Notes under the pieces: model-generated
What the model was told of the DNA's origin: nothing
Seen by the model: only the letters and a program-made list of their open reading frames with translations
Databases searched by the model: none
In this document: in pieces, positions 1,664 to 60,653 of the stretch
Numbering within the stretch: position 1 is the first letter of the stretch
How the letters are laid out: each line of letters opens with the position of its first letter
Translations under genes and position numbers: made by a program
Sequence record: PZ583739.1
DNA: 64,000 bases
Strand: one strand, 5' to 3'
From: a phage

Positions 1664-2831
1664 GGTCTTCCATCATATCTAAATCGTTTTCGATATCTGC
1701 AGCGGACGGTTTTGTCTTACCTTCAGGAGCAGAGTATTTTTCAACCTTGGAGGCAATAAGCGCATCAACTTCGGCATCAACAACAGCATTGCTATCGATT
1801 GCACCCAGTTGGTAATGGCGTTTGATTGCATCACGGAAAGGTTCGTGTTTAAACAGCGGCCCCCAGAATTCGGTGCAGTTAGTATCTTTTGCGCGCCATG
1901 ATTTTTCTTCGCGGACCATTTCCCCGGTCTCAACATCAAGATATTCACGGTTATACCAACCAACTTTTGGTTTAACCACAAATCCGATTTCTATTGCCAT
2001 ATCAAGCAGGCCAGAATACGGGTCAATACCGCCATCGAATTTTACATCAATGAAGAATTTACTTTTCTCTTTGACCATACGAGATTTTTCGGCGTTCAGA
2101 ACAAATTGGAAGCCTTCAAGTTCTTTACCAGTTTCTTTAATCTGACGTTTACCGATAATGAATACAGTGTCCGCGGAATACATAACACCTGTGCCACCGG
2201 TCATAACGGTTTTACTGTACATCTCAATCGTCTCGATTGTATGGTTAACCGCGACACAAGGAATATCCTTGATACTAAAATAAGGGGTAACAATACGGAA
2301 CAGAGATTTCAGGGATTTAGCACGAGTCATATCGCCAACGACTTTTTCGTTCATCGCATCTTCTGTTTCTTTTTTCGACGCCATGTTACCGATTGAGTCA
2401 ATAAAGATAATGACTTTTTCACCACGCTCAATTGCTTCAAGCTGGTTAACCATATCAACTTTCAATTGTTCAACCGACTGGATTGGTGTATGGATAACAC
2501 GCTCCGGGTCTACTTTCATTGCACGAAGATATGCTTCTGTGATACCAAATTCTGAATCATAGAACAAACAGATTGCGTCGGGGTATTTGTTCATATATGC
2601 AGAGACCATCGTTAAACCCATATTGGATTTAAAGTGTTTTGACGGACCAGCAAAAATAGTCAAACCTGACTGCATACCACCATCTAGTGCACCGCTGATT
2701 GCAATGTTCAGCATCGGGATTTTTGTACGAACTACATCTTTATCATTAAAGAACTTGGACTTGGTAAGAGTCGCAGTCATTTTGGATGTAGAAGCTTTAA
2801 TCAAACGGGATTTCAAATCTGCAATAGACAT
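1653..2831 (-). CDS. uvsX: UvsX recombinase (RecA/Rad51-like)
   Basis: 392 aa; MSIADLKSRLIKASTSKMTA...GLTIFAGPSKHFKSN (Walker A)...near-collinear with T4 UvsX over full length. Confidence 0.96.
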   Translation of the reverse strand: MSIADLKSRLIKASTSKMTATLTKSKFFNDKDVVRTKIPMLNIAISGALDGGMQSGLTIFAGPSKHFKSNMGLTMVSAYMNKYPDAICLFYDSEFGITEAYLRAMKVDPERVIHTPIQSVEQLKVDMVNQLEAIERGEKVIIFIDSIGNMASKKETEDAMNEKVVGDMTRAKSLKSLFRIVTPYFSIKDIPCVAVNHTIETIEMYSKTVMTGGTGVMYSADTVFIIGKRQIKETGKELEGFQFVLNAEKSRMVKEKSKFFIDVKFDGGIDPYSGLLDMAIEIGFVVKPKVGWYNREYLDVETGEMVREEKSWRAKDTNCTEFWGPLFKHEPFRDAIKRHYQLGAIDSNAVVDAEVDALIASKVEKYSAPEGKTKPSAADIENDLDMMEDLDE

Positions 2832-2884
2832 TCATTTTTTCCATAGGCACCATTATATTTTTCTCACAGGTTTAAGATAGGATA

Positions 2885-2911
2885 ATTATATCACTGTATT
2901 TTCAGAGCAAT
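2885..2911 (-). promoter_or_regulatory. Candidate MotA-dependent middle promoter upstream of uvsX
   Basis: Minus strand reads TTGCTCTGA (MotA-box-like) then 11 nt then TATAAT. Confidence 0.3.
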
Positions 2912-3173
2912 TAACGATTGAATCCACGATTAATTGCACGTTCAACAATCTTCCGGGTCTGACGTTTGTCCCACCAGTACATAAAACCAATACCAAATGC
3001 AGACAACAGCCATAGGCTAATCAATAACATACCAATCATAATATTCTTCTCGCAGTTCAGAGCAATTTAGTAAACGTTACCACGTTTCCAGTTTTCTTCA
3101 TTCAAATGCTTATTACGCTTTTCTAATAGCAACAAACCAATTACTGTTACAACAATCAGAAGTAATAATAACA

Positions 3174-3677
3174 TCAGTTAATACCTTGGCGTGCTTTCTC
3201 TTTAGCCACACATTTATTAATATAGCTCAGACGGTTTTGAGCAGAACGCTGATACATATCGCGGTACTCATTAGCTTTTGGAGAACCCGTCTCCGCTGCC
3301 TGATAAGCTTCTGCGCGCATGATGTTTATCTGCATATTGATATATGACATGCAGACCTGTGAAATCTGGTTAACAGTATCCAGGTCATTTTGTCGCTTAG
3401 TTTCTGCTTCCAGCTTGGCAATGATTTCGTCATGCTTCGCAGCTTGCTCGCGTTTGTACTCAATTTCTTGTTGAGCATATTTCGCGCAGTTGTTTCCACA
3501 TTGATTGTTGTCGCGTTTGTAGATAAGTCCAGTACCGCCTTTGAAATCAAAGGAACCATTATGCACCTGACGGTCTGCAGCAATTCGCGCTTTACCAATC
3601 TCGTTGGCATTAACAACATCACCCTGGTAAGCACAACCAGATAGCAGCATAACAGCTGCGATAGCTAACTTTTTCAT
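3174..3677 (-). CDS. Predicted lipoprotein, 167 aa
   Basis: N-terminus MKKLAIAAVMLLSGC (signal peptide + lipobox); RBS GAGGAAA upstream of ATG at 3677; ORF-track start at 3704 is a longer extension. Confidence 0.55.
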   Translation of the reverse strand: MKKLAIAAVMLLSGCAYQGDVVNANEIGKARIAADRQVHNGSFDFKGGTGLIYKRDNNQCGNNCAKYAQQEIEYKREQAAKHDEIIAKLEAETKRQNDLDTVNQISQVCMSYINMQINIMRAEAYQAAETGSPKANEYRDMYQRSAQNRLSYINKCVAKEKARQGIN

Positions 3678-9827: not shown

Positions 9828-10711
9828 TTCATTTTCCTATTAACATAATAATTTGACCAGGACCGGATTGCACCCTGATAGTTTTCATCATTAAACCCAT
9901 GTTCAATGGCGTGTTTTCTAAACTTAATATACCCTGGTTGGCCTAAAGCATTCCACAATGCTTTAAGTTCATCTTCATACTGTAACCAGGTTCCTCTTGC
10001 TTTAGATTTCCTAAATTTTTCTTTAAATTCAGGGTTGGCATTTCGTTCGGTTGCTCGTTTTGAAGCCTTTATTCTATTATCTGAATTATTCCAATATTCA
10101 GTAATTGATTTTAAATATTTTTCATATACTTCAGATGTATTCATTATAGCTTTGAATTTTAAAGCATACTCAACATCTTTATAACGATTTTTGACTTCAA
10201 CAGACCTTGCTTGTCGAGCTTCGTCAGTCCAATATTCTTTTTGGAAGTCTTTAATTGCTTGAATGTGCTTATCTGAAATTGAACAATCTTTACGAACACC
10301 AACATAATCAGATGTAAGTTCAGATGGATGTAATTTAACAACTTTACCCGTTTTCAAGTTTCGGTATGGAGCATATCCAGGAGCATCATAGCGGCTTTTG
10401 TCGTGTGCATACGTTTTATTAAAGTATTTCTCATTGGTTACAGCTTTAACTGACATTTGAAAAATATTTTCTATTTTCCTTGGGTCCTGTTTTGTTTCCC
10501 CAATGATAGTAACAATATAGTCACCGCTATCAATTAATTCATTATACAGCGTAGTATATTTTGAATTCGGAGAACCTGTATAAATTTTATTATTTTTATC
10601 GAGAATATTTTGGCCATTAAATGTCGTATCAACCTTTGAACCAATATAATAACAAGGGAATTCATTATTTTGTTCCCTTGTTATAAAGGTTATTTTATAA
10701 ATCAAATTCAC
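9824..10711 (-). CDS. GIY-YIG family homing endonuclease (Seg-like), free-standing
   Basis: N-terminus LIYKITFITREQNNEFPCYYIGSK fits the GIY-(10-11 aa)-YIG motif; inserted between 45 and rpbA; basic C-terminal half. Confidence 0.7.
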   Translation of the reverse strand: MNLIYKITFITREQNNEFPCYYIGSKVDTTFNGQNILDKNNKIYTGSPNSKYTTLYNELIDSGDYIVTIIGETKQDPRKIENIFQMSVKAVTNEKYFNKTYAHDKSRYDAPGYAPYRNLKTGKVVKLHPSELTSDYVGVRKDCSISDKHIQAIKDFQKEYWTDEARQARSVEVKNRYKDVEYALKFKAIMNTSEVYEKYLKSITEYWNNSDNRIKASKRATERNANPEFKEKFRKSKARGTWLQYEDELKALWNALGQPGYIKFRKHAIEHGFNDENYQGAIRSWSNYYVNRKMK

Positions 10712-29354: not shown

Positions 29355-29561
29355 TCACTTGCGACGACGTTTTGGTAATGGTTTAGGGAAGAACATTGCT
29401 TTACCTGCAGGGGTCAAAGTCACACGCAAAGCATTACCAATACCAAGGGATGCTTTAACCAGACCTTTGGCTTTTAACTCACCAAATGCTTGACGTTGTT
29501 CAGGGTCACGAGTGTTAACCATCAGACCTTTTTCACCAGCAGCTTTGATTAATTCTAACAT
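29355..29561 (-). CDS. Hypothetical protein, 68 aa
   Basis: ORF directly downstream of early promoter at 29603-29631. Confidence 0.4.
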   Translation of the reverse strand: MLELIKAAGEKGLMVNTRDPEQRQAFGELKAKGLVKASLGIGNALRVTLTPAGKAMFFPKPLPKRRRK

Positions 29562-29602: not shown

Positions 29603-29631
29603 ATTATGTCCTAAGACAAGAGGCTTGTACA
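29603..29631 (-). promoter_or_regulatory. T4-type early promoter cassette (PeSL-like)
   Basis: Minus strand: GTGTACA, 17 nt, CATAAT, then GATTCCATACTGAGTTACCAAATAAAC. Confidence 0.5.
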
Positions 29632-29679
29632 CAATATACTAAATAAAAATACTTAATAAAACCATAAAGGAGAAAGTTT

Positions 29680-30426
29680 ATGATTTTGTCCGGAAGAACT
29701 ATTGATGAACTCAATGAAAAAGTCCAGGCCGCCTTGGCTGATAATTGGTATTTGTTTGGTTCTACTGTGGTGTTGCCAAATACACCTACGGATAGCAAAG
29801 AACGTTTTTTCCAAACTATGTCCAACTCGGAAACTCAGATACCGGGCCCGCCTGGACCAAAAGGAGAACCGGGTGTGTCCGGGCCCAAAGGAGACCCAGG
29901 CGGGGCTGGAAAATCTTCTTATCAGATATGGCTTGACTTGGGGAATACAGGAACTGTTGATGATTTTTTAACTGATACAGCGGGAAAGAGGGAAAAATCC
30001 GAGGTGTTTTGGAGTGGTATAAACGTTCTATTAACTAATGGTGCGACTTCAAACATAATTAGTATTTTAAAGGGGATTCCGCCGACAGCAGGGACTCTAT
30101 CTCCGTTTTTTAGAACCGCTGATGATAAGTTGTGGCCATATAACCAAGACAGAAGCCTAATGTTTAAACTCAACCTTATTGGTAATTTTACAGGAGCCTC
30201 GCAAGCTCGAAGTATAACATTAAATTTCGTTGGAACCAACGGAAACACTTATATACAGAATCGTCCGGAAAATGCTACAGATATTTTGTCTTTTACGACG
30301 TTCTTTAGCATTGATAAAGATGGGGCAATGGCAACCAATGGTACAGCTATAACTGTTACGCCAAATGGCGGCAACTTTACAATAACCTCTGCATTGTTAG
30401 TAGCCGAACAAACAGTGACTTCGTAA
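29680..30426 (+). CDS. Collagen-repeat fibre-like protein, 248 aa, on the opposite strand to its neighbours
   Basis: Strong RBS AAAGGAGAAAG 7 nt before ATG; seven Gly-X-Y triplets (GPPGPKGEPGVSGPKGDPGGAG) followed by KSSYQIWLDLGNTGTVDDFL, a motif I associate with phage tail-fibre proteins; Asn/Thr/Gly-rich C-terminus. Confidence 0.6.
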   Translation: MILSGRTIDELNEKVQAALADNWYLFGSTVVLPNTPTDSKERFFQTMSNSETQIPGPPGPKGEPGVSGPKGDPGGAGKSSYQIWLDLGNTGTVDDFLTDTAGKREKSEVFWSGINVLLTNGATSNIISILKGIPPTAGTLSPFFRTADDKLWPYNQDRSLMFKLNLIGNFTGASQARSITLNFVGTNGNTYIQNRPENATDILSFTTFFSIDKDGAMATNGTAITVTPNGGNFTITSALLVAEQTVTS

Positions 30427-30448
30427 ACAAAAAAGGGCCAGATGGCCC
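30427..30448 (-). terminator. Rho-independent terminator (hairpin may also stop the plus-strand gene)
   Basis: GGGCCagauGGCCC hairpin with U6 on minus strand; lies between converging genes 29680-30426 (+) and 30449-30688 (-). Confidence 0.5.
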
Positions 30449-30688
30449 TTAGATTGCACTCCAAAAATTATGGAATCTTATAGTATTGATAGCCCAGTTA
30501 GCAAACCTGCGAGTTTGCTTGGAAGTTGGTTTGCATGTGTACTTGATATTGACCCGACGACCAGTTTCACGACAGACTGCTTCGAGATACCAGCGGCGAC
30601 CTTTATGAGGTCTTCCATATGATAAGAAGACCTTGATTTCCTGGTTATCGATAATAAGAGTTGTGGTTGTCAAGATATACCTCTTCAA
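30449..30688 (-). CDS. Hypothetical basic protein, 79 aa
   Basis: ORF downstream of nucleotidyltransferase gene. Confidence 0.35.
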   Translation of the reverse strand: MKRYILTTTTLIIDNQEIKVFLSYGRPHKGRRWYLEAVCRETGRRVNIKYTCKPTSKQTRRFANWAINTIRFHNFWSAI

Positions 30689-31655
30689 CGAACTTGTTCC
30701 AGAACTTCATGTCCACCTTCTCAGGCATACCGTTCTTATGAGCCTGGATGGCCAGGACTTCGACTTCATCGACAGTATTTTCCAACAGGCCTTGGACGAC
30801 TTTGAAAGGCATATCGCCAGCTTTGATTGCTTTAATAATAGAAGCGTTTTTGAGCGGATAAACCAGGTCACCAGTTTGATAGATTTCCTTCAACTGGTAT
30901 CCAGCACGATAAGCATGGCTCAGAGCTTTCCAGTCAATACCTTCATTGGCTTCAGCCTTACGAGCACGTTCACCATATTCTGCATCGAGCTTATTCAGAG
31001 ATTGCTTAAGCTCAATTAAAGACAGGGTGGTTTGGTACTTACGTCCAAGAACAGTATAGAACGTTTGAGGGCCTGTTTTCTCATGATTATGGAATACCCA
31101 TTCACAGAACTCATTTTCAGGGAGTCTGTGTTTGATATCTTCTACCTTAGTTCGACGTTGCTTAGTTGAACCGTCTTCTTGATAATCAACCCACTGTTCA
31201 GGAATCTGGTTAACGATTGCCAGTACACCACGTAGAGCGGCCAATCGAGAACCTTTAACACCATATTTGGAAGCTTGCTTACGGACATAACCCAAATAGG
31301 CTTTCATGTTAGTTGTATAGAACCGTGAACGGTTATCCTGGATAAACTTCCATACATCTGGTAAATCGGATTTGACAACCAGGTCAGCCGGGGTGTGAAT
31401 CATATCCAGAGCAACGGTTTCGCCTTCGGCCGCCAGTTTAAAGAAATATTTCAGACTATAAAGTTCATGGTCAACATCATCTTTTGTATTTTTGGTGGCC
31501 GTGTTATTCGTGTTCAGGTTGGTATGGTTCATCGCCGTCCCAAGTAGAATATCACGAGGATGTGGAACAAAGATTTCTTTAAAATCGACATCAGATTCTG
31601 AGGTACTTGTTCCATAAAGGTGGCTACCGAAGTAGCCTTTCATAACTGTTCTCAT
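30645..31655 (-). CDS. Predicted Pol-beta-superfamily nucleotidyltransferase, 336 aa
   Basis: Start trimmed to ATG at 31655 with RBS GAGGA; N-terminal GSHLYGTSTSESDVDF fits the GS-x(9-13)-DxD NTase signature. Confidence 0.55.
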   Translation of the reverse strand: MRTVMKGYFGSHLYGTSTSESDVDFKEIFVPHPRDILLGTAMNHTNLNTNNTATKNTKDDVDHELYSLKYFFKLAAEGETVALDMIHTPADLVVKSDLPDVWKFIQDNRSRFYTTNMKAYLGYVRKQASKYGVKGSRLAALRGVLAIVNQIPEQWVDYQEDGSTKQRRTKVEDIKHRLPENEFCEWVFHNHEKTGPQTFYTVLGRKYQTTLSLIELKQSLNKLDAEYGERARKAEANEGIDWKALSHAYRAGYQLKEIYQTGDLVYPLKNASIIKAIKAGDMPFKVVQGLLENTVDEVEVLAIQAHKNGMPEKVDMKFWNKFVEEVYLDNHNSYYR

Positions 31656-32104
31656 TTTTTGTCCTCGAAGTGGATTACAGGACACATCTTAGATTTACGA
31701 GCTTTAATGTATTGAATAACGATGTTTTCTTTAGTTTCCTTTCCTTCACGTTTGGCTAGAATACGTTGCCATTCCTTTTCTTCTTTATGTAAATCATACC
31801 AGGACCATAAATTCATTAGACCATACATTAAACCAAATGCTACCGCCAGAATAAGAGCCAGTGTAGCTAGTCCTAAAATAAACCCTAAGCCTAAACCGAC
31901 CGGGGTGCTTAATACAAAGAAATGCTCTAATACACCAGCCCCAGCGACAGTTAATCCAAAACCCATACTACCTGCAGCAACAGCACAAACAAAACAGGCC
32001 CAAACCATTTTCCAGAAATAAGCACACAATGAGTGTGGGCGAGAATTGCGGTCATAAAATTTATCGTGGAAACGAGCATGCCAAGAGTTTGTATTGATAA
32101 TCAT
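31652..32104 (-). CDS. Multi-pass membrane protein, 150 aa
   Basis: Three or four hydrophobic helices (Gly/Ala/Leu-rich), charged C-terminal tail; stop overlaps NTase start. Confidence 0.45.
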   Translation of the reverse strand: MIINTNSWHARFHDKFYDRNSRPHSLCAYFWKMVWACFVCAVAAGSMGFGLTVAGAGVLEHFFVLSTPVGLGLGFILGLATLALILAVAFGLMYGLMNLWSWYDLHKEEKEWQRILAKREGKETKENIVIQYIKARKSKMCPVIHFEDKK

Positions 32105-41142: not shown

Positions 41143-41168
41143 AATACCCCCTTATATAGGAGTATTTA

Positions 41169-41630
41169 TTATCCGAAAATTTGAGTCATTACCTTGTACA
41201 TCGATTTGCCCATCACGTACTGCCATTGGCTCGGTTTAATCAGAGCAAATGCATCAAACTCTGGGACCGAACTGCCATCCGGGAAGGTATGATAGGCAGA
41301 GCATTTACTGTGTCTGAATTGCTCATGCTCGACAGGAACCGTATACAAAAACAGGTGAAGGTTTTTGTTATCTGAATAACGGAACTCACCGAGGTCTTTT
41401 AAGAATGCCGGGTCGTATTGGGTAAACCCAGTTTCTTCTTCGGTTTCACGAATAGCCGCTTCAATCGGGGATTCACCAGCTTCCACATGACCCTTAGGGA
41501 TGTCCCATTTGTGTGCTGGCATACCTGGTTTACGAGAACCGGTCACACGACCCATGAATAACTCTTTATCTTCAGTCATGAAAATAATGCCAGCAGATAA
41601 TTCTTTCACCTTGTTTTTCTTACTCATCAT
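41169..41630 (-). CDS. nudE: Nudix hydrolase NudE
   Basis: Nudix box GHVEAGESPIEAAIRETEEETG; start trimmed to ATG at 41630. Confidence 0.9.
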   Translation of the reverse strand: MMSKKNKVKELSAGIIFMTEDKELFMGRVTGSRKPGMPAHKWDIPKGHVEAGESPIEAAIRETEEETGFTQYDPAFLKDLGEFRYSDNKNLHLFLYTVPVEHEQFRHSKCSAYHTFPDGSSVPEFDAFALIKPSQWQYVMGKSMYKVMTQIFG

Positions 41631-51398: not shown

Positions 51399-51784
51399 TC
51401 GCATGTTCCTTCATCAACAATAGTATGCGTATTGGCATTAACAATCTGCCACCAGTCAAAACGGTTGGAACCATAACAAGGCTTCTTCTCGTTTTCTTTA
51501 ATGATATCACGCAGTTCATCTTCAGTCGCAGCCTTTGCGATTAAGTCAGCATAACCGCCACGAGGATAATAGCTATCACCAGCAAAGAGCAAAAAGTTTG
51601 TTTTGATATTCTTGAATTCTTCAAGAGTAATAACTGTTCCATTTGGTTGAACAATATCTACATAACTATACCCTAATTTTTGAGCTTCATCTACTGCTTC
51701 AAGCAGGGTGTCATGCGCCCACCCAATTTGGCAATCTGGTTTTTCAGATGGATTTGCCTGATAATCCGCGTACACTTTATACAT
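51395..51784 (-). CDS. Hypothetical protein, 129 aa
   Basis: ATG at 51784 with RBS AAGGTG. Confidence 0.45.
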   Translation of the reverse strand: MYKVYADYQANPSEKPDCQIGWAHDTLLEAVDEAQKLGYSYVDIVQPNGTVITLEEFKNIKTNFLLFAGDSYYPRGGYADLIAKAATEDELRDIIKENEKKPCYGSNRFDWWQIVNANTHTIVDEGTCE

Positions 51785-51785
51785 T

Positions 51786-51971
51786 TTACTCACCTTTGGA
51801 GATTTTATCCATAACGAAAGAGATTGAACCAATTAAAAATGCAACTACTAAAGAGATTATATTCTCAGAAGTTGAAAGCATATTCAACATAAAGCCAGCA
51901 AACATGCTAAAACCAAAAGCGGTAACAGCAACAAGGGCAGTAACATTTCTAATTAATTCGCAACGTTTCAT
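51786..51971 (-). CDS. Small membrane protein, 61 aa
   Basis: Two hydrophobic helices. Confidence 0.4.
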   Translation of the reverse strand: MKRCELIRNVTALVAVTAFGFSMFAGFMLNMLSTSENIISLVVAFLIGSISFVMDKISKGE

Positions 51972-52032
51972 TTTATTCTCCTCATATTTTGATAGGGTTA
52001 TAGTATCTCAACTAGAACCCGTTGTAAACAAT

Positions 52033-52257
52033 TTATTCCACACCAGCAGCTTTCAAAAGTTTTTTAAGATTGGCAGTACCTTGAGCGGAAAATGTGACTT
52101 TGCCACCTTTTTCACCGATGCTACCGGTCAATTTAGCAAGTTTATCACTTGGAATTTTTTTAAAATCAGCCAGTGTACCATCAAAGGTTTTTGTAACAAC
52201 TGGCAGTTCATCTTCGTGTCTTTTAGCTTCGGTAATAAATTCTTGATAAGTTTTCAT
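52033..52257 (-). CDS. CTS-tagged capsid internal protein candidate, 74 aa
   Basis: N-terminus MKTYQEFITEA; own early promoter. Confidence 0.65.
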   Translation of the reverse strand: MKTYQEFITEAKRHEDELPVVTKTFDGTLADFKKIPSDKLAKLTGSIGEKGGKVTFSAQGTANLKKLLKAAGVE

Positions 52258-52287
52258 TTTGATTCCTATTGTTTATTTGATGAGATA

Positions 52288-52316
52288 ATTATACAATATC
52301 CCATTCAAAAGTACAC
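52288..52316 (-). promoter_or_regulatory. T4-type early promoter
   Basis: Minus strand: GTGTAC, 17 nt, TATAAT, then TATCTC. Confidence 0.45.
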
Positions 52317-52571
52317 TTATTTTTTAGGGATACGGTAGTAACGCATCTCAACATCTTTCTGCTTGTACCACTTTTTGATAAGGTCTTCAGAACCTTTAAT
52401 AGTAACGATGTCATAGCGACCATCATGCGATACTTCAGCACTTAACTGCATGAAGTTGTCTAGTGAACGACGCAATTCCTCATTAGAAAAACTACCACGC
52501 GGGGAACCAACATAAGCAAACTCAACTTTTGCATCTGCGGCTTCGTTAATAAATTCTTGATAAGTTTTCAT
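52317..52571 (-). CDS. CTS-tagged capsid internal protein candidate, 84 aa
   Basis: N-terminus MKTYQEFINEA; own early promoter. Confidence 0.65.
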   Translation of the reverse strand: MKTYQEFINEAADAKVEFAYVGSPRGSFSNEELRRSLDNFMQLSAEVSHDGRYDIVTIKGSEDLIKKWYKQKDVEMRYYRIPKK

Positions 52572-53159: not shown

Positions 53160-53492
53160 TTATTTATAAAGTTTTGCCAGTTCTTTACGTCCGCGAGCAG
53201 ACATAATAAATTGTTCATCGCCAATTTTAAAATAAGCCATACCACCGTCAACAGCGATACCAATTTCTTTAGTACCTTCTTTGCCTTTCCACTTGCCACC
53301 AGATTTCAGGACAGCTTCAACTGCAGCTTTGGAATATTTGGACGTTTGAAAACGTTCATTACCAATCTGAAAGAAAACACCATCTGCATTTTTGGATAAA
53401 CCAAATTTCAGAGAGCCTTCACTATCATCAATTGATTTGGTCTCATTGATGGCGGATTCGGCTAAAAACTCGTTGTAAGTCTTTATGTTCAT
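53160..53492 (-). CDS. CTS-tagged capsid internal protein candidate, 110 aa
   Basis: N-terminus MNIKTYNEFLAES; own early promoter. Confidence 0.6.
   Translation of the reverse strand: MNIKTYNEFLAESAINETKSIDDSEGSLKFGLSKNADGVFFQIGNERFQTSKYSKAAVEAVLKSGGKWKGKEGTKEIGIAVDGGMAYFKIGDEQFIMSARGRKELAKLYK
53161..53168 (-). promoter_or_regulatory. T4 late promoter TATAAATA
   Basis: Exact TATAAATA on minus strand overlapping the stop of the upstream gene. Confidence 0.5.
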
Positions 53493-58263: not shown

Positions 58264-58291
58264 ATAGCCTCCTAATAAATATTGATATACT

Positions 58292-58299
58292 TATTTATA
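58292..58299 (-). promoter_or_regulatory. T4 late promoter TATAAATA for gene 4
   Basis: Exact TATAAATA on minus strand. Confidence 0.55.
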
Positions 58300-58311: not shown

Positions 58312-58914
58312 ATGCTTTTTTCATTTTTTAACCCAATTGATTATGATGCTAAAACAATCAGAAAAAACTCGGCATCATTAACGAAAGAAGACGTCTTAAG
58401 CATCCCGATGACTGACATCTTCAGAAACTATCGTGCCTATTTTGATAAGGTTGCGGTTAATTATACACCGAAAACATATTACATCGCTGGAGCTCCAAGA
58501 CCTGAAGAACTTGCATATCAGCTCTATGGTAATACTCAACTCTATTGGGTTCTCCTTATGCTTAATGATATCTATGACCCGTATTATGGTTGGATATGTT
58601 CACAAGAATCATCGTATCAGGCATCAGTTCAACGCTATTCGAATATAGGTGGTAATCAGGTTCTTTATCATGTAAATGAAGATGGTGAAAAATTCTGGAA
58701 TCTTGTTTCTTATCCTGATAATCCGTACACCTGGTATGATAAAGGTGATAAGAATAAATTGTACCCACAATATGAAGGTCCATTAGCTGCAGTAGATATC
58801 TATGAAGATGCTATTCGTAAAAATGAATATAAACGAGAAATAAAGATAATCGACCCTAATGATATCGAATCATTTATTTCGGCATTAATCCGTGAGATGG
58901 AGAAGTCATTATGA
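58312..58914 (+). CDS. 53: Baseplate wedge protein gp53
   Basis: ATG at 58312 with RBS GGAGG; MLFSFFNPIDYDAKTIRKN...PMTDIFRNYRAYF...YHVNEDGEKFWNLVSYPDNPYTWYDKGDK, collinear with T4 gp53. Confidence 0.9.
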   Translation: MLFSFFNPIDYDAKTIRKNSASLTKEDVLSIPMTDIFRNYRAYFDKVAVNYTPKTYYIAGAPRPEELAYQLYGNTQLYWVLLMLNDIYDPYYGWICSQESSYQASVQRYSNIGGNQVLYHVNEDGEKFWNLVSYPDNPYTWYDKGDKNKLYPQYEGPLAAVDIYEDAIRKNEYKREIKIIDPNDIESFISALIREMEKSL

Positions 58915-60653
58915 TTAATATGTCAGATAATGTAAGTTGGTTCGTCGGTGTTGTCGAAGACCGAATGGACCCACTTCAACAAGGCCGAGTCCGTGTCCGT
59001 GTATGGGGTATGCATCCATATGAGAAATCACAAGGGCCTGTAAAAGGTATCAGAACTGAAGACCTGCCATGGATGTCTGTACTGATGCCAACATCATCTG
59101 CATCAGTTTCTGGTATTCAAACTGCAATGACCGGTATGGTGCCAGGGACTCAGGTATATGGTCACTTTTTAGACAAGTGGAAACTCAACGGGCTTGTTAT
59201 TGGTACGTATGGTTCAGCCTCAAGACAAAAAGCAAATCCCAACGAAGGCTTCTCTGACCCCACAGGACAATATCCACTTTATGTAGGTAATGATGCTGCT
59301 GCGCTCAACCGTGGCGGTGAGGTTGGTTATGATGCAACTTCGAACGTAATTCAGGATGCAAACACCGATGTAGGTATTAACCCTGATGGCCTTGATTTGA
59401 GTCAAGTTAAGCCAGATGATAATCCTAATTTCACAATTGAAAATATGCTTCACCGTGATGAAGGTCTTCGTTTGAAAGTATATTGGGACACCGAAGGTTA
59501 TCCTACTATAGGTATAGGACACTTAATTGCACCACAACCTATTAGAGATATGAATCAGATAAACAAAATATTATCTAATCAAATAGGCCGTGAAGTTAAA
59601 GGTAACCCTGGTGCAATATCAATGGACGAGGCTTCTAAGTTATTCCAGGAAGACCTTAAAAAAGTTCAAAACGATATAGGCCGGCATAGTGTTGTAGGCC
59701 CGGTTTACAATAAAGAAAACCGTTCGAGACAAATGGCTCTTGAAAACATGGCTTTCCAAATGGGATTGGGTGGGCTTGCTAAATTTAAAACGATGCTCGC
59801 TGCAATGTTAGCCGGAGATTATAAGAAAGCATTTGATGCCGCCCGTGATTCTGTATGGTTTAACCAAACTAAAGGCCGTGCATCAAGGGTATCAATGATT
59901 ATCCTCACAGGTAATATGGAATCATATGGTATTATGGCCCCTAAAGAAAGGTCATTTAAAGGGCGTTCATATAGGATGATTCAAACCTTTGCAGCCCCTG
60001 CAAATTCTGACCCAGCCGACCCGTGGACTCCAGAAGATACGAGGATTTTGTTTAAAGAGCCAGAATCCAGTTACAAGGGCGAATATCCTTACGTGCAGAC
60101 AATGCAAACTGAAGGCGGTCATATTCAGGAATTCGATAACACCCCTGGACAAGAACGTTATCGACTGATTCACCCGACCGGTTCCTATGAGGAAGTTGCA
60201 CCAGATGGTCGTAAGACTTCGAAGACAGTGGCTGATGGATATTATATGACCCAGGGCGATTCGAGTACTTACGTTGGCGGTAATAATAAAGTCAACGTTG
60301 GTGGTGATGAAACCTATTATAATATGGCTAACGTTCGTCGTCAGACCGATGGAAACGAAAGCATTCATATTCGTGGGAATGAAACCAAAACCATTGAAGG
60401 TGACGGTACAATTATCGTCAAAGGTAATGTAAGTATTCTGGTCGAAGGTAATGCTGAAATAACTGTTAAAGGTGACGCAAAAACTCTTGTCGAAGGTAAC
60501 CATGATTATACGGTAAATGGTAATGTCAAATGGTCCGTTAATGGAAACGTTGATATGACCGTGGCTGGCAATTGGTCCGAAACAATGTCAACAATGAGTT
60601 CTATTGCATCTGGTCAATATACTATTGATGGTTCGAGGATTGACATTGGCTAA
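58911..60653 (+). CDS. 5: Baseplate hub / tail lysozyme gp5
   Basis: 580 aa; OB-fold N-domain, central lysozyme domain (LRLKVYWDTEGYPTIGIGHL) and C-terminal beta-helix VxGxxxxx repeats. Confidence 0.96.
   Translation: MINMSDNVSWFVGVVEDRMDPLQQGRVRVRVWGMHPYEKSQGPVKGIRTEDLPWMSVLMPTSSASVSGIQTAMTGMVPGTQVYGHFLDKWKLNGLVIGTYGSASRQKANPNEGFSDPTGQYPLYVGNDAAALNRGGEVGYDATSNVIQDANTDVGINPDGLDLSQVKPDDNPNFTIENMLHRDEGLRLKVYWDTEGYPTIGIGHLIAPQPIRDMNQINKILSNQIGREVKGNPGAISMDEASKLFQEDLKKVQNDIGRHSVVGPVYNKENRSRQMALENMAFQMGLGGLAKFKTMLAAMLAGDYKKAFDAARDSVWFNQTKGRASRVSMIILTGNMESYGIMAPKERSFKGRSYRMIQTFAAPANSDPADPWTPEDTRILFKEPESSYKGEYPYVQTMQTEGGHIQEFDNTPGQERYRLIHPTGSYEEVAPDGRKTSKTVADGYYMTQGDSSTYVGGNNKVNVGGDETYYNMANVRRQTDGNESIHIRGNETKTIEGDGTIIVKGNVSILVEGNAEITVKGDAKTLVEGNHDYTVNGNVKWSVNGNVDMTVAGNWSETMSTMSSIASGQYTIDGSRIDIG

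Follow-up and report, generated by a model that had tools for sequence, protein, structure and literature searches.

The 6.6-kDa protein gp12 of phage SPP1 is a short, collagen-like auxiliary protein that the phage can dispense with. It forms a trimer at hexon centres on the outside of an HK97-fold capsid (PMC5292684, PMC7602432), so that a trimer at a six-fold site has a precedent. Another outer capsid protein, T4 Hoc, is dispensable, late and adhesin-like, and combines an anchor with exposed binding domains. In phage phi24B, a cryo-electron microscopy study assigned the DUF1737 domain of the esterase gp84 as a capsid-binding domain, in which one helix and three antiparallel strands form a hexamer over the central pore of the major capsid protein hexon; approximately 2,500 DUF1737 proteins consist of this one domain and have no known role (10.64898/2026.04.10.717836, a preprint of April 2026). 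The needle proteins Sf6 gp9 and HS1 carry a knob with a tumour necrosis factor (TNF)-like jellyroll fold (PDB 3RWN and 4K6B), and the spread of this knob into T4-like phages was noted earlier, with its function unknown (Leavitt et al. 2013). Here, we analysed a 64,000-nucleotide stretch of phage DNA (sequence record PZ583739.1; hereafter, the window) and focused on a plus-strand open reading frame (ORF) at 29,680–30,426, the predicted product of which joins a DUF1737-like N-terminal domain (N-domain) and a collagen-like tract to an Sf6-type knob. The window was 90%–95% identical to the T4-like phages of Gaprivervirus (RZ, DK-13, P8, VR7, VR20 and others), and its sequence places the host genome among the Straboviridae myoviruses. 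The gene is located in the 'hyperplastic' early region from nrdC to tk, the genes of which are read from the minus strand. Our best explanation, put forward tentatively, is that it encodes a dispensable, late, trimeric adhesin on the virion surface, built of an anchor, a collagen stalk and a TNF-like knob and most likely attached to the capsid. The gene family itself was already known and annotated; what this analysis adds is an anchor resembling DUF1737, an architecture with a variable stalk, a conserved layout as a late island and the hypothesis of a head fibre.

Coding Evidence

A first-pass annotation of the window had described a plus-strand gene with the ribosome-binding site (RBS) AAAGGAG, seven Gly-X-Y triplets and the motif KSSYQIWLDLGNTGTVDDFL, all of which were present as described. 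The homology search that it had proposed yielded strong matches to PF16532 (Phage_tail_NK; E 8.5e-33, 113.9 bits against a cutoff of 27), phrog_1030 (E 1.5e-66) and PDB 3RWN (E 9.4e-32), with 4K6B also at E ~1e-31; NCBIfam and Rfam searches gave zero matches. Comparison with four relatives (approximately 30 substitutions) gave a ratio of nonsynonymous to synonymous substitution rates (dN/dS) of 0.155–0.17, with third codon positions changed most, indicating purifying selection. Other phage groups also retain the plus-frame protein, with identities as low as 44%. These results indicate that the plus-strand ORF is a genuine coding gene. In nine Gaprivervirus records with 95%–96% nucleotide identity, its product was named either 'tail needle knob' or 'hypothetical'.

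The same annotation had named two antisense ORFs on the minus strand (29922–30248 and 30249–30464) as the possible real genes, in which case the plus-strand ORF would be spurious. They follow the local direction of transcription and are open also in RZ and P8, but the latter is explained by the 96% identity of those sequences and needs no other reason. Moreover, they start with GTG or TTG, no family matches were found for them and a minus-strand terminator lies upstream of them. Set against the Pfam, PHROG and PDB matches of the plus frame (E 1e-33 to 1e-66), its third-position substitution bias and its conservation elsewhere, this alternative is refuted and retains practically no credibility.

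Protein Architecture

Alignment with homologues resolved four modules, namely the N-domain, the Gly-X-Y tract, a linker motif and the knob (Table 1). In the knob, PF16532 aligned to residues 99–244 of 248 over model positions 30–175 of 175, and the C-terminal 150 residues were homologous to the Sf6 gp9/HS1 needle knob with approximately 39% identity. A structure model of the knob (predicted local distance difference test [pLDDT] mostly 70–91) matched the Sf6/HS1 needle knobs in a Foldseek search with E 4e-15, a TM score of 0.82 and a root-mean-square deviation of 2.8 Å over 153 columns. More distant fold matches included the TNF-like lectins BC2L-C and PLTL, PRD1 P5, C1q heads and ExsFA, and the fold is also found in the phi812 central spike. 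The Asn/Thr/Gly-rich C-terminus corresponds to the final strands of this folded domain. The four Sf6 residues in close contact with L-glutamate (E146/K200/S248/D250) correspond to E108/K163/S210/D212 here and were invariant across the family alignment; the pocket residues are thus conserved, and the knob may bind glutamate. Although the structure models were monomers only, the trimeric knob homologues and the Gly-X-Y tract suggest that the knob forms a homotrimer. The earlier description of a fibre-like, probably trimeric protein of structural or adhesin type within the minus-strand early region is supported.

The assignment of the protein to the tail-fibre type, in contrast, had to be revised, since the C-terminus has the fold of the Sf6 needle knob rather than that of a tail-fibre tip and the putative anchor resembles the capsid-binding DUF1737 domain. 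Nor does the protein resemble a needle. The gp26-type plug and the long coiled-coil shaft of Sf6 gp9/HS1 are absent, the knob being preceded instead by the DUF1737-like domain and the collagen tract; only 98 residues precede it, and neither a needle-family Pfam match upstream of the knob nor a coiled coil in the model was found. Tail needles belong to P22-like short-tailed phages and are encoded beside tail genes, whereas this gene comes from the nrdC–tk early region of a contractile-tailed, T4-like phage without a needle. With T4-type tails ending in the gp5 spike, a tail needle can be ruled out. The RefSeq product name 'tail needle knob' is a domain-transfer label, which cannot suit a needle-less phage.

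The collagen-like tract begins with seven unbroken triplets at residues 56–76 (GPP GPK GEP GVS GPK GDP GGA), followed by GKS as an eighth, and these eight unbroken triplets contain 6 Pro. Because the tract is short, its score against PF01391 (Collagen) was 17.6 bits, below the cutoff of 27.2. Tract length varied widely among homologues, from zero triplets in RB43, CfP1 and the siphovirus Carvaje, through 7–8 here and 9 in MN04, to longer tracts in PEi26, fHe-Yen9-01, P0007 (> 20 triplets) and P0014; in P0014, the tract alternates with additional copies of the linker motif. The linker pattern SAYQxWL..GNxGT..DFL (here SSYQIWL..GNTGT..DFL) was kept in all full-length homologues and is found repeatedly between the collagen tracts of hundreds of fibre proteins. 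In the AlphaFold2 (AF2) model, the linker forms helices at residues 80–86 and 93–101. The general layout recalls Bacillus BclA and complement C1q, in which an N-terminal attachment region and a variable Gly-X-Y stalk precede a C-terminal jellyroll trimer, and C1q and ExsFA were among the fold matches. This is an analogy of architecture without shown sequence homology, and the stalk in the window is much shorter (8 triplets). SPP1 gp12 is similar as a short, dispensable and auxiliary collagen-like trimer, but it has no knob and no DUF1737-like domain, its own collagen motif is N-terminal and its C-terminus is helical; no sequence relationship between the two proteins was detected.

The N-domain follows the pattern L-N-x-K-V..L..G-x-x-L-F/W-G...P....R-F-F-Q..S and is conserved from T4-like phages to Carvaje, whereas the stalk is variable. 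Among 24,736 Pfam families, PF08410 (DUF1737) was the top family for all nine of the diverse family N-domains searched (best E 7.6e-6). Profile alignment with hhalign supported this relationship, both between the N-domain alignment and E. coli DUF1737 (probability 91.7%, E 7.7e-7) and between the N-domain and the phi24B gp84 N-terminus alone (E 3e-5 over 48 columns). The AF2 model of the N-domain (pLDDT 79.6) comprised a strand at residues 2–5, a helix at 8–20 and strands at ~24–31 and 43–48. When this model was searched against BFVD, the named matches after two family members were mostly 'DUF1737 domain-containing protein' (TMq 0.58–0.80), the sole recurring name among named matches in the top 30. 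Searching PDB sequences with a profile of the N-domain returned GCN4-like noise alone, and Foldseek against the PDB gave nothing under E 2, the searched copy presumably holding no DUF1737 structure. A search of 5.8 billion proteins with the profile recovered four fragments of the same family (frameshifted genes) and no stand-alone domains. The N-domain is thus a probable remote homologue of DUF1737 that falls short of Pfam membership. In both this protein and phi24B gp84, a small N-terminal domain of a helix and three strands carries a cargo, with similarity in profile and fold. The cargo of gp84 is an esterase that is cleaved off, and gp84 is a hexamer, whereas a collagen stalk and knob are carried here and the similarity is remote.

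The fold search also led to a comparable combination in JK_26 of the siphovirus Jk06 (Rogunavirus), which has DUF1737, collagen and a beta-rich C-terminal domain of approximately 140 amino acids (aa), aligns with the N-domain (hhalign, E 3e-5) and belongs to a late structural module. JK_26 differs in having two tandem DUF1737 repeats (24.1 bits against the Pfam cutoff of 24) and another C-terminal domain without PF16532. Its gene (NC_007291, 6752–7588, minus strand) is situated between the head protease and major head protein genes, a plausible place for a gene of head decoration. Its label 'DNA polymerase' is likely a misannotation, which has spread to phrog_22681. JK_26 is a candidate head fibre. 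The Sf11 decoration protein was also considered and rejected, having an unrelated beta-tulip fold.

Expression Signals

No clear promoter had been recognised for the gene previously. We found a variant of the T4-type late box, ACTAAATA, upstream of the start codon (Table 1), and this box is present also upstream in RZ and P8. The exact box TATAAATA had no match on the plus strand near the gene, but it occurs upstream of the orthologues in MN04, AnYang, PEi26 and fHe-Yen9-01 (four phages, three genera), and the RB43 and CfP1 orthologues have the one-mismatch variant CATAAATA. TAAATA was depleted in the window (33 sites vs. 77.6 ± 8.9 expected from shuffles), consistent with selection against stray late promoters; the retention of this core 34 nucleotides (nt) upstream of the gene despite the depletion is a point for late expression. 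At the same distance before recognisable late genes, TAAATA sites occur as AATAAATA (gene 53 and lysozyme e) or TATAAATA. Of 50 T4 late sites, 32 match perfectly and nine carry A at −13, and the Aeh1 late consensus has (a/g)C at −13/−12, that is, (a/g)CTAAATA (PMC2988020). Our conclusion is that ACTAAATA is probably a late promoter, possibly a weak one, and the gene is presumably expressed late in this phage. The RBS was kept in RZ, P8, MN04 and AnYang. A sigma-70 candidate on the plus strand (AAGACA-16-TATACT, 29613–29640) was rejected as weak, with a −35 element unconserved in RZ/P8 and scan matches not above those in shuffles.

The hairpin reported to be shared with the convergent minus-strand gene was also found; it occupies the 22-nt gap between the stop of the gene (30426) and that of the minus-strand ORF (30449–30688). 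The calculated folding energy was −12.7 kcal/mol for the plus strand, compared with −14.3 kcal/mol for the minus strand, and only on the minus strand is the stem followed by a U-run. As an intrinsic terminator, the hairpin is predicted to work well on the minus strand but weakly on the plus strand. The stem was kept in RZ and MN04 with changed loop bases, and unrelated hairpins occupied the equivalent place in PEi26, RB43, CfP1, AnYang and fHe-Yen9-01. Thus, at every locus examined, a hairpin directly follows the stop codon, with sequences unrelated between genera. On the other side of the gene, a sigma-70-type early promoter predicted from its motif would restart minus-strand transcription for the ORF at 29355–29561; in MN04 and PEi26, early promoters of the form GTTTACA...TATTAT adjoin TATAAATA. 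The late boxes upstream of the orthologues (TATAAATA, CATAAATA or ACTAAATA), together with the minus-strand terminator and the early restart promoter, suggest that the gene is an insulated late island. In this layout, the gene would be read from its own late promoter, the terminator would halt early antisense transcripts and the early promoter would restart transcription beyond it.

Distribution and Exchange of the Gene

Full-length homologues were found in 42 phage records. Nine of these (eight phages) belong to Gaprivervirus and approximately 20 to the RB43 group (Pseudotevenvirus); the other carriers are Dhakavirus MN04, C6 and AnYang, Kanagawavirus PEi20 and PEi26, Tegunavirus fHe-Yen9-01, Klebsiella phage KLB31 and three Carvaje-type siphoviruses. 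At every T4-like locus examined, the gene opposes the early genes of the nrdC.10/nrdC.11–tk region, suggesting a long-standing syntenic resident of this region in at least five T4-like genera. In fHe-Yen9-01 (2501–3319), the homologue occupies a different slot, between mobD-side genes and rI/tk, but it is still reversed relative to its surroundings, with an exact TATAAATA before it and a terminator hairpin after it. The promoter, gene and hairpin thus appear to move as one piece. The Carvaje homologue lies in a late structural operon, where it overlaps the final part of the gene for the large terminase, and in RCIP0089 (a 45-kb phage) it comes after the large terminase gene in a late operon; both positions also speak for late expression. 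Many Carvaje-like metagenome contigs (~10001–10705) have a split homologue, divided into pieces of 94 aa (N-terminal) and 93 aa (knob); frameshift or assembly error may account for these copies, and the gene may be decaying there.

A check of the locus in related phages, also proposed in the first-pass annotation, showed that the gene is present at nrdC–tk in relatives and absent in VR7 and JS98. Homology to VR7 ends at 29649/29650 and returns at 30444/30445. The VR7 slot (2495–2873) holds ORF099c, a different small minus-strand gene of 98 aa with its own terminator, and the JS98 slot (3248–3627) is approximately 380 bp long with no annotated gene, whereas the conspecific MN04 carries the gene. 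The slot, next to nrdC.11 and between the early promoter and the ORF100c-like gene, is a recombination hot spot. Against Dhakavirus MN04, the synonymous rate (dS) of codons 77–248 was 0.158, compared with 0.31–1.15 in the flanking genes, and codons 1–76 were saturated. The low value implies a recent exchange of the knob half between genera, the breakpoint being near codon 76 in the collagen/linker region. The G+C content of the gene (42.3%) was ordinary relative to its neighbours (39.2% ± 3.4%), with identical G+C at third codon positions, which rules it out as a sign of foreign origin; codon usage deviated by 2.6 standard deviations from that of the (mostly early) neighbours. Of the earlier suggestion that the gene is a laterally acquired module, the replaceable nature holds and a recent foreign import does not. 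The gene is best described, on these comparisons, as a module exchanged laterally among T4-like phages, whose shared gene pool has long contained the family in syntenic positions.

Virion Location and Alternative Explanations

In the explanation that we favour, the Sf6-type TNF-like knob and the 7–8-triplet collagen helix would gather three chains. The knob would be the ligand-binding head, with L-glutamate pockets at the subunit interfaces and a fold common to trimeric lectins and C1q, and the collagen tract would be a stalk of adjustable length. The DUF1737-like N-domain would fasten the fibre to the particle, most likely to the HK97-fold capsid shell as for phi24B gp84. The product would then act as an accessory adhesin that binds cell-surface or environmental ligands reversibly, outside the DNA-delivery machine. 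Dispensability is suggested by the absence of the gene from close relatives and by the frameshifts in Carvaje-like contigs; trimer formation, virion presence, capsid attachment and the adhesin role are likewise what we infer. As to its place on the virion, capsid binding by DUF1737 (known for phi24B gp84 alone), the position of JK_26 beside a capsid gene and the example of SPP1 gp12 make a head fibre a better-supported guess than a tail fibre. A knob-only homologue was detected in CsCl-purified virions of a Vi01-like phage (Ackermannviridae; PMC10892097), which gives modest support to virion association in needle-less phages.

Several observations weigh against this explanation. The window protein scored only 13.7 bits against PF08410 at full length and 17.5 bits as an isolated domain, not reaching the cutoff of 24, and the E-values of the N-domain fold search were weak (0.02–2), as expected for a sequence of 55 residues. 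The N-domain does not retain the Tyr42 'tooth' of phi24B, and the full-length AF2 model was of low confidence (pLDDT 63.7). The phi24B source is unreviewed and describes a hexamer bound to flat hexons in the T=9 capsid of a podovirus, to which a trimer has no simple fit (10.64898/2026.04.10.717836). The late box of this phage is non-canonical, keeping the TAAATA core but deviating twice from TATAAATA. Non-structural proteins were also present in the Sajous1 virion preparation, the one with the knob-only homologue (PMC10892097). In the searched literature, neither a proteome nor a reconstruction was found for the virion of any T4-like phage carrying the gene, nor anything usable on virion proteomics of fHe-Yen9-01, GuL6 and PP99. 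Finally, the gene-positive Gaprivervirus phage RZ also encodes Hoc, which holds the hexon centres in T4, so that an absence of Hoc cannot be invoked in support of capsid binding. Hoc itself differs from the protein described here in being a monomer of immunoglobulin (Ig)-like domains with a C-terminal anchor, encoded elsewhere. The Hoc-like gene of RZ (NC_070780.1, 13487–14001+) has approximately 282 codons vs. 376 in T4, which suggests that RZ Hoc has one Ig-like domain fewer.

An attachment to the tail rather than the head would make the protein an accessory fibre trimer on the baseplate, tail fibres or neck that aids adsorption, in line with the first-pass annotation and with the database label 'tail needle knob'. 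The sole characterised context of the knob is indeed the tip of P22-like tail needles, its fold recurs in the phi812 central spike and PRD1 P5, tail-fibre proteins typically contain the SAYQ..GNTGT..DFL motif and collagen tracts, and the PHROG matches fall in the 'tail' category. However, with 98 residues before the knob, there is no gp26-like plug or coiled-coil shaft, and the tail tip is the gp5 spike. The same N-domain occurs in T4-like myoviruses and Carvaje siphoviruses, whose tails differ and whose HK97-fold capsids are alike, and both the DUF1737 similarity and the head-module parallel in Jk06 favour the capsid. We consider a tail-borne fibre unlikely. A soluble late protein outside the virion, that is, a trimeric lectin-like factor freed at lysis that masks receptors or debris or binds a host or environmental ligand, would agree with the position of the gene amid non-structural, often absent accessory genes of the hyperplastic region, with the TNF-like lectins among the structural neighbours, with the many single-domain DUF1737 proteins and with the lack of virion proteomes containing full-length homologues in the searched literature. 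Such a factor also seems improbable, given that the protein has no signal peptide or obvious export signal and that a conserved N-domain, a variable stalk and a head form the layout of anchored fibres (BclA, C1q and SPP1 gp12). In addition, the siphovirus gene lies inside a structural late operon, and the Ackermannviridae homologue was recovered with CsCl-purified particles.

The gene could also be a decaying or silent cassette, with an intact ORF that is poorly expressed or not expressed after loss of the canonical late promoter at the left junction. The left VR7 breakpoint falls within the promoter region, the box reads ACTAAATA instead of TATAAATA and there is an 11-nt insertion relative to MN04. 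This is very unlikely in view of the same upstream sequence and intact ORF in the Gaprivervirus records examined, the low dN/dS and the kept TAAATA core; furthermore, AATAAATA drives genes 53 and e, and (a/g)CTAAATA is the late consensus of Aeh1. Extending the adhesin explanation, DUF1737-like domains could be a portable adaptor to HK97-fold capsids for varied cargo in myo-, sipho- and podoviruses, and the gene could encode a second, Hoc-independent head fibre in some T4-like phages, with a lectin-like TNF-fold knob on a collagen stalk. The capsids of these phages would then bear an unrecognised adhesin, the head and stalk length of which are swapped by recombination at the collagen/SAYQ linker. 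We regard this wider proposal as possible but doubtful.

Although no virions have been studied better than those of T4-like phages, this conserved late gene still lacks an assigned role. If the anchor does bind the capsid, T4-like phages of therapeutic or food-safety interest (RZ, P8, DK-13, fHe-Yen9-01 and the RB43 group) would bear an extra head-borne adhesin, with possible effects on immunogenicity, on adsorption and on how well the particles are retained on mucus or surfaces, and the N-domain could be used directly as a tag for display. Relatives with and without the gene exist as natural pairs (RZ vs. VR7 and MN04 vs. JS98), which makes the question directly testable.

Neighbouring Features

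Table 1. Positions of the gene, its modules, the associated signals and the neighbouring genes in the window.
Feature	Position	Strand	Basis or remark
Coding sequence of the collagen-stalked knob protein	29680..30426	+	ATG start, 248 aa, family matches, dN/dS
N-terminal domain, residues 1–50, DUF1737-like, putative virion (capsid) anchor	29680..29829	+	Profiles, AF2 model
Collagen-like tract, residues 56–79	29845..29916	+	Read directly
Linker motif KSSYQIWLDLGNTGTVDDFL, residues 78–97	29911..29970	+	Alignment
Sf6-type TNF-like knob, residues 99–248	29974..30423	+	PF16532, 3RWN/4K6B, Foldseek
Variant T4-type late promoter (probable) ACTAAATA, TAAATA core	29638..29645	+	34 nt before ATG
TAAAAATA overlapping the late box	29644-29651	+	
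RBS AAAGGAG	29666..29672	+	7 nt before ATG, read directly
Sigma-70-type early promoter (predicted) TGTACA-17-CATAAT	29603..29631	-	Back to back with the late promoter
Shared hairpin of the gene and the convergent ORF	30433..30450	.	7 bp, 5 G-C pairs
Replaceable cassette relative to VR7	29650..30444	.	blastn breakpoints, alignments
67-aa ORF, homologue of a VR7 gene annotated as similar to RB69 ORF102c	29355-29561	-	
Convergent ORF, phrog_8921, VR7 ORF100c homologue	30449..30688	-	
nrdC.11 (nucleotidyltransferase)	30645-31685		Neighbour
Example late-box sites	58274-58281; 41163-41170; 53161-53168; 58292-58299	+; -; -; -	

The gene had been singled out as the only convincing one on the plus strand between 1 and 58 kb, which is approximately correct. 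The sole other long plus-strand ORF before 58 kb (51748–52338, 196 aa) had no PHROG match and is probably spurious. The plus-strand late genes 53 and 5 begin from 58312, with the gp5 spike gene at 58911–60650.

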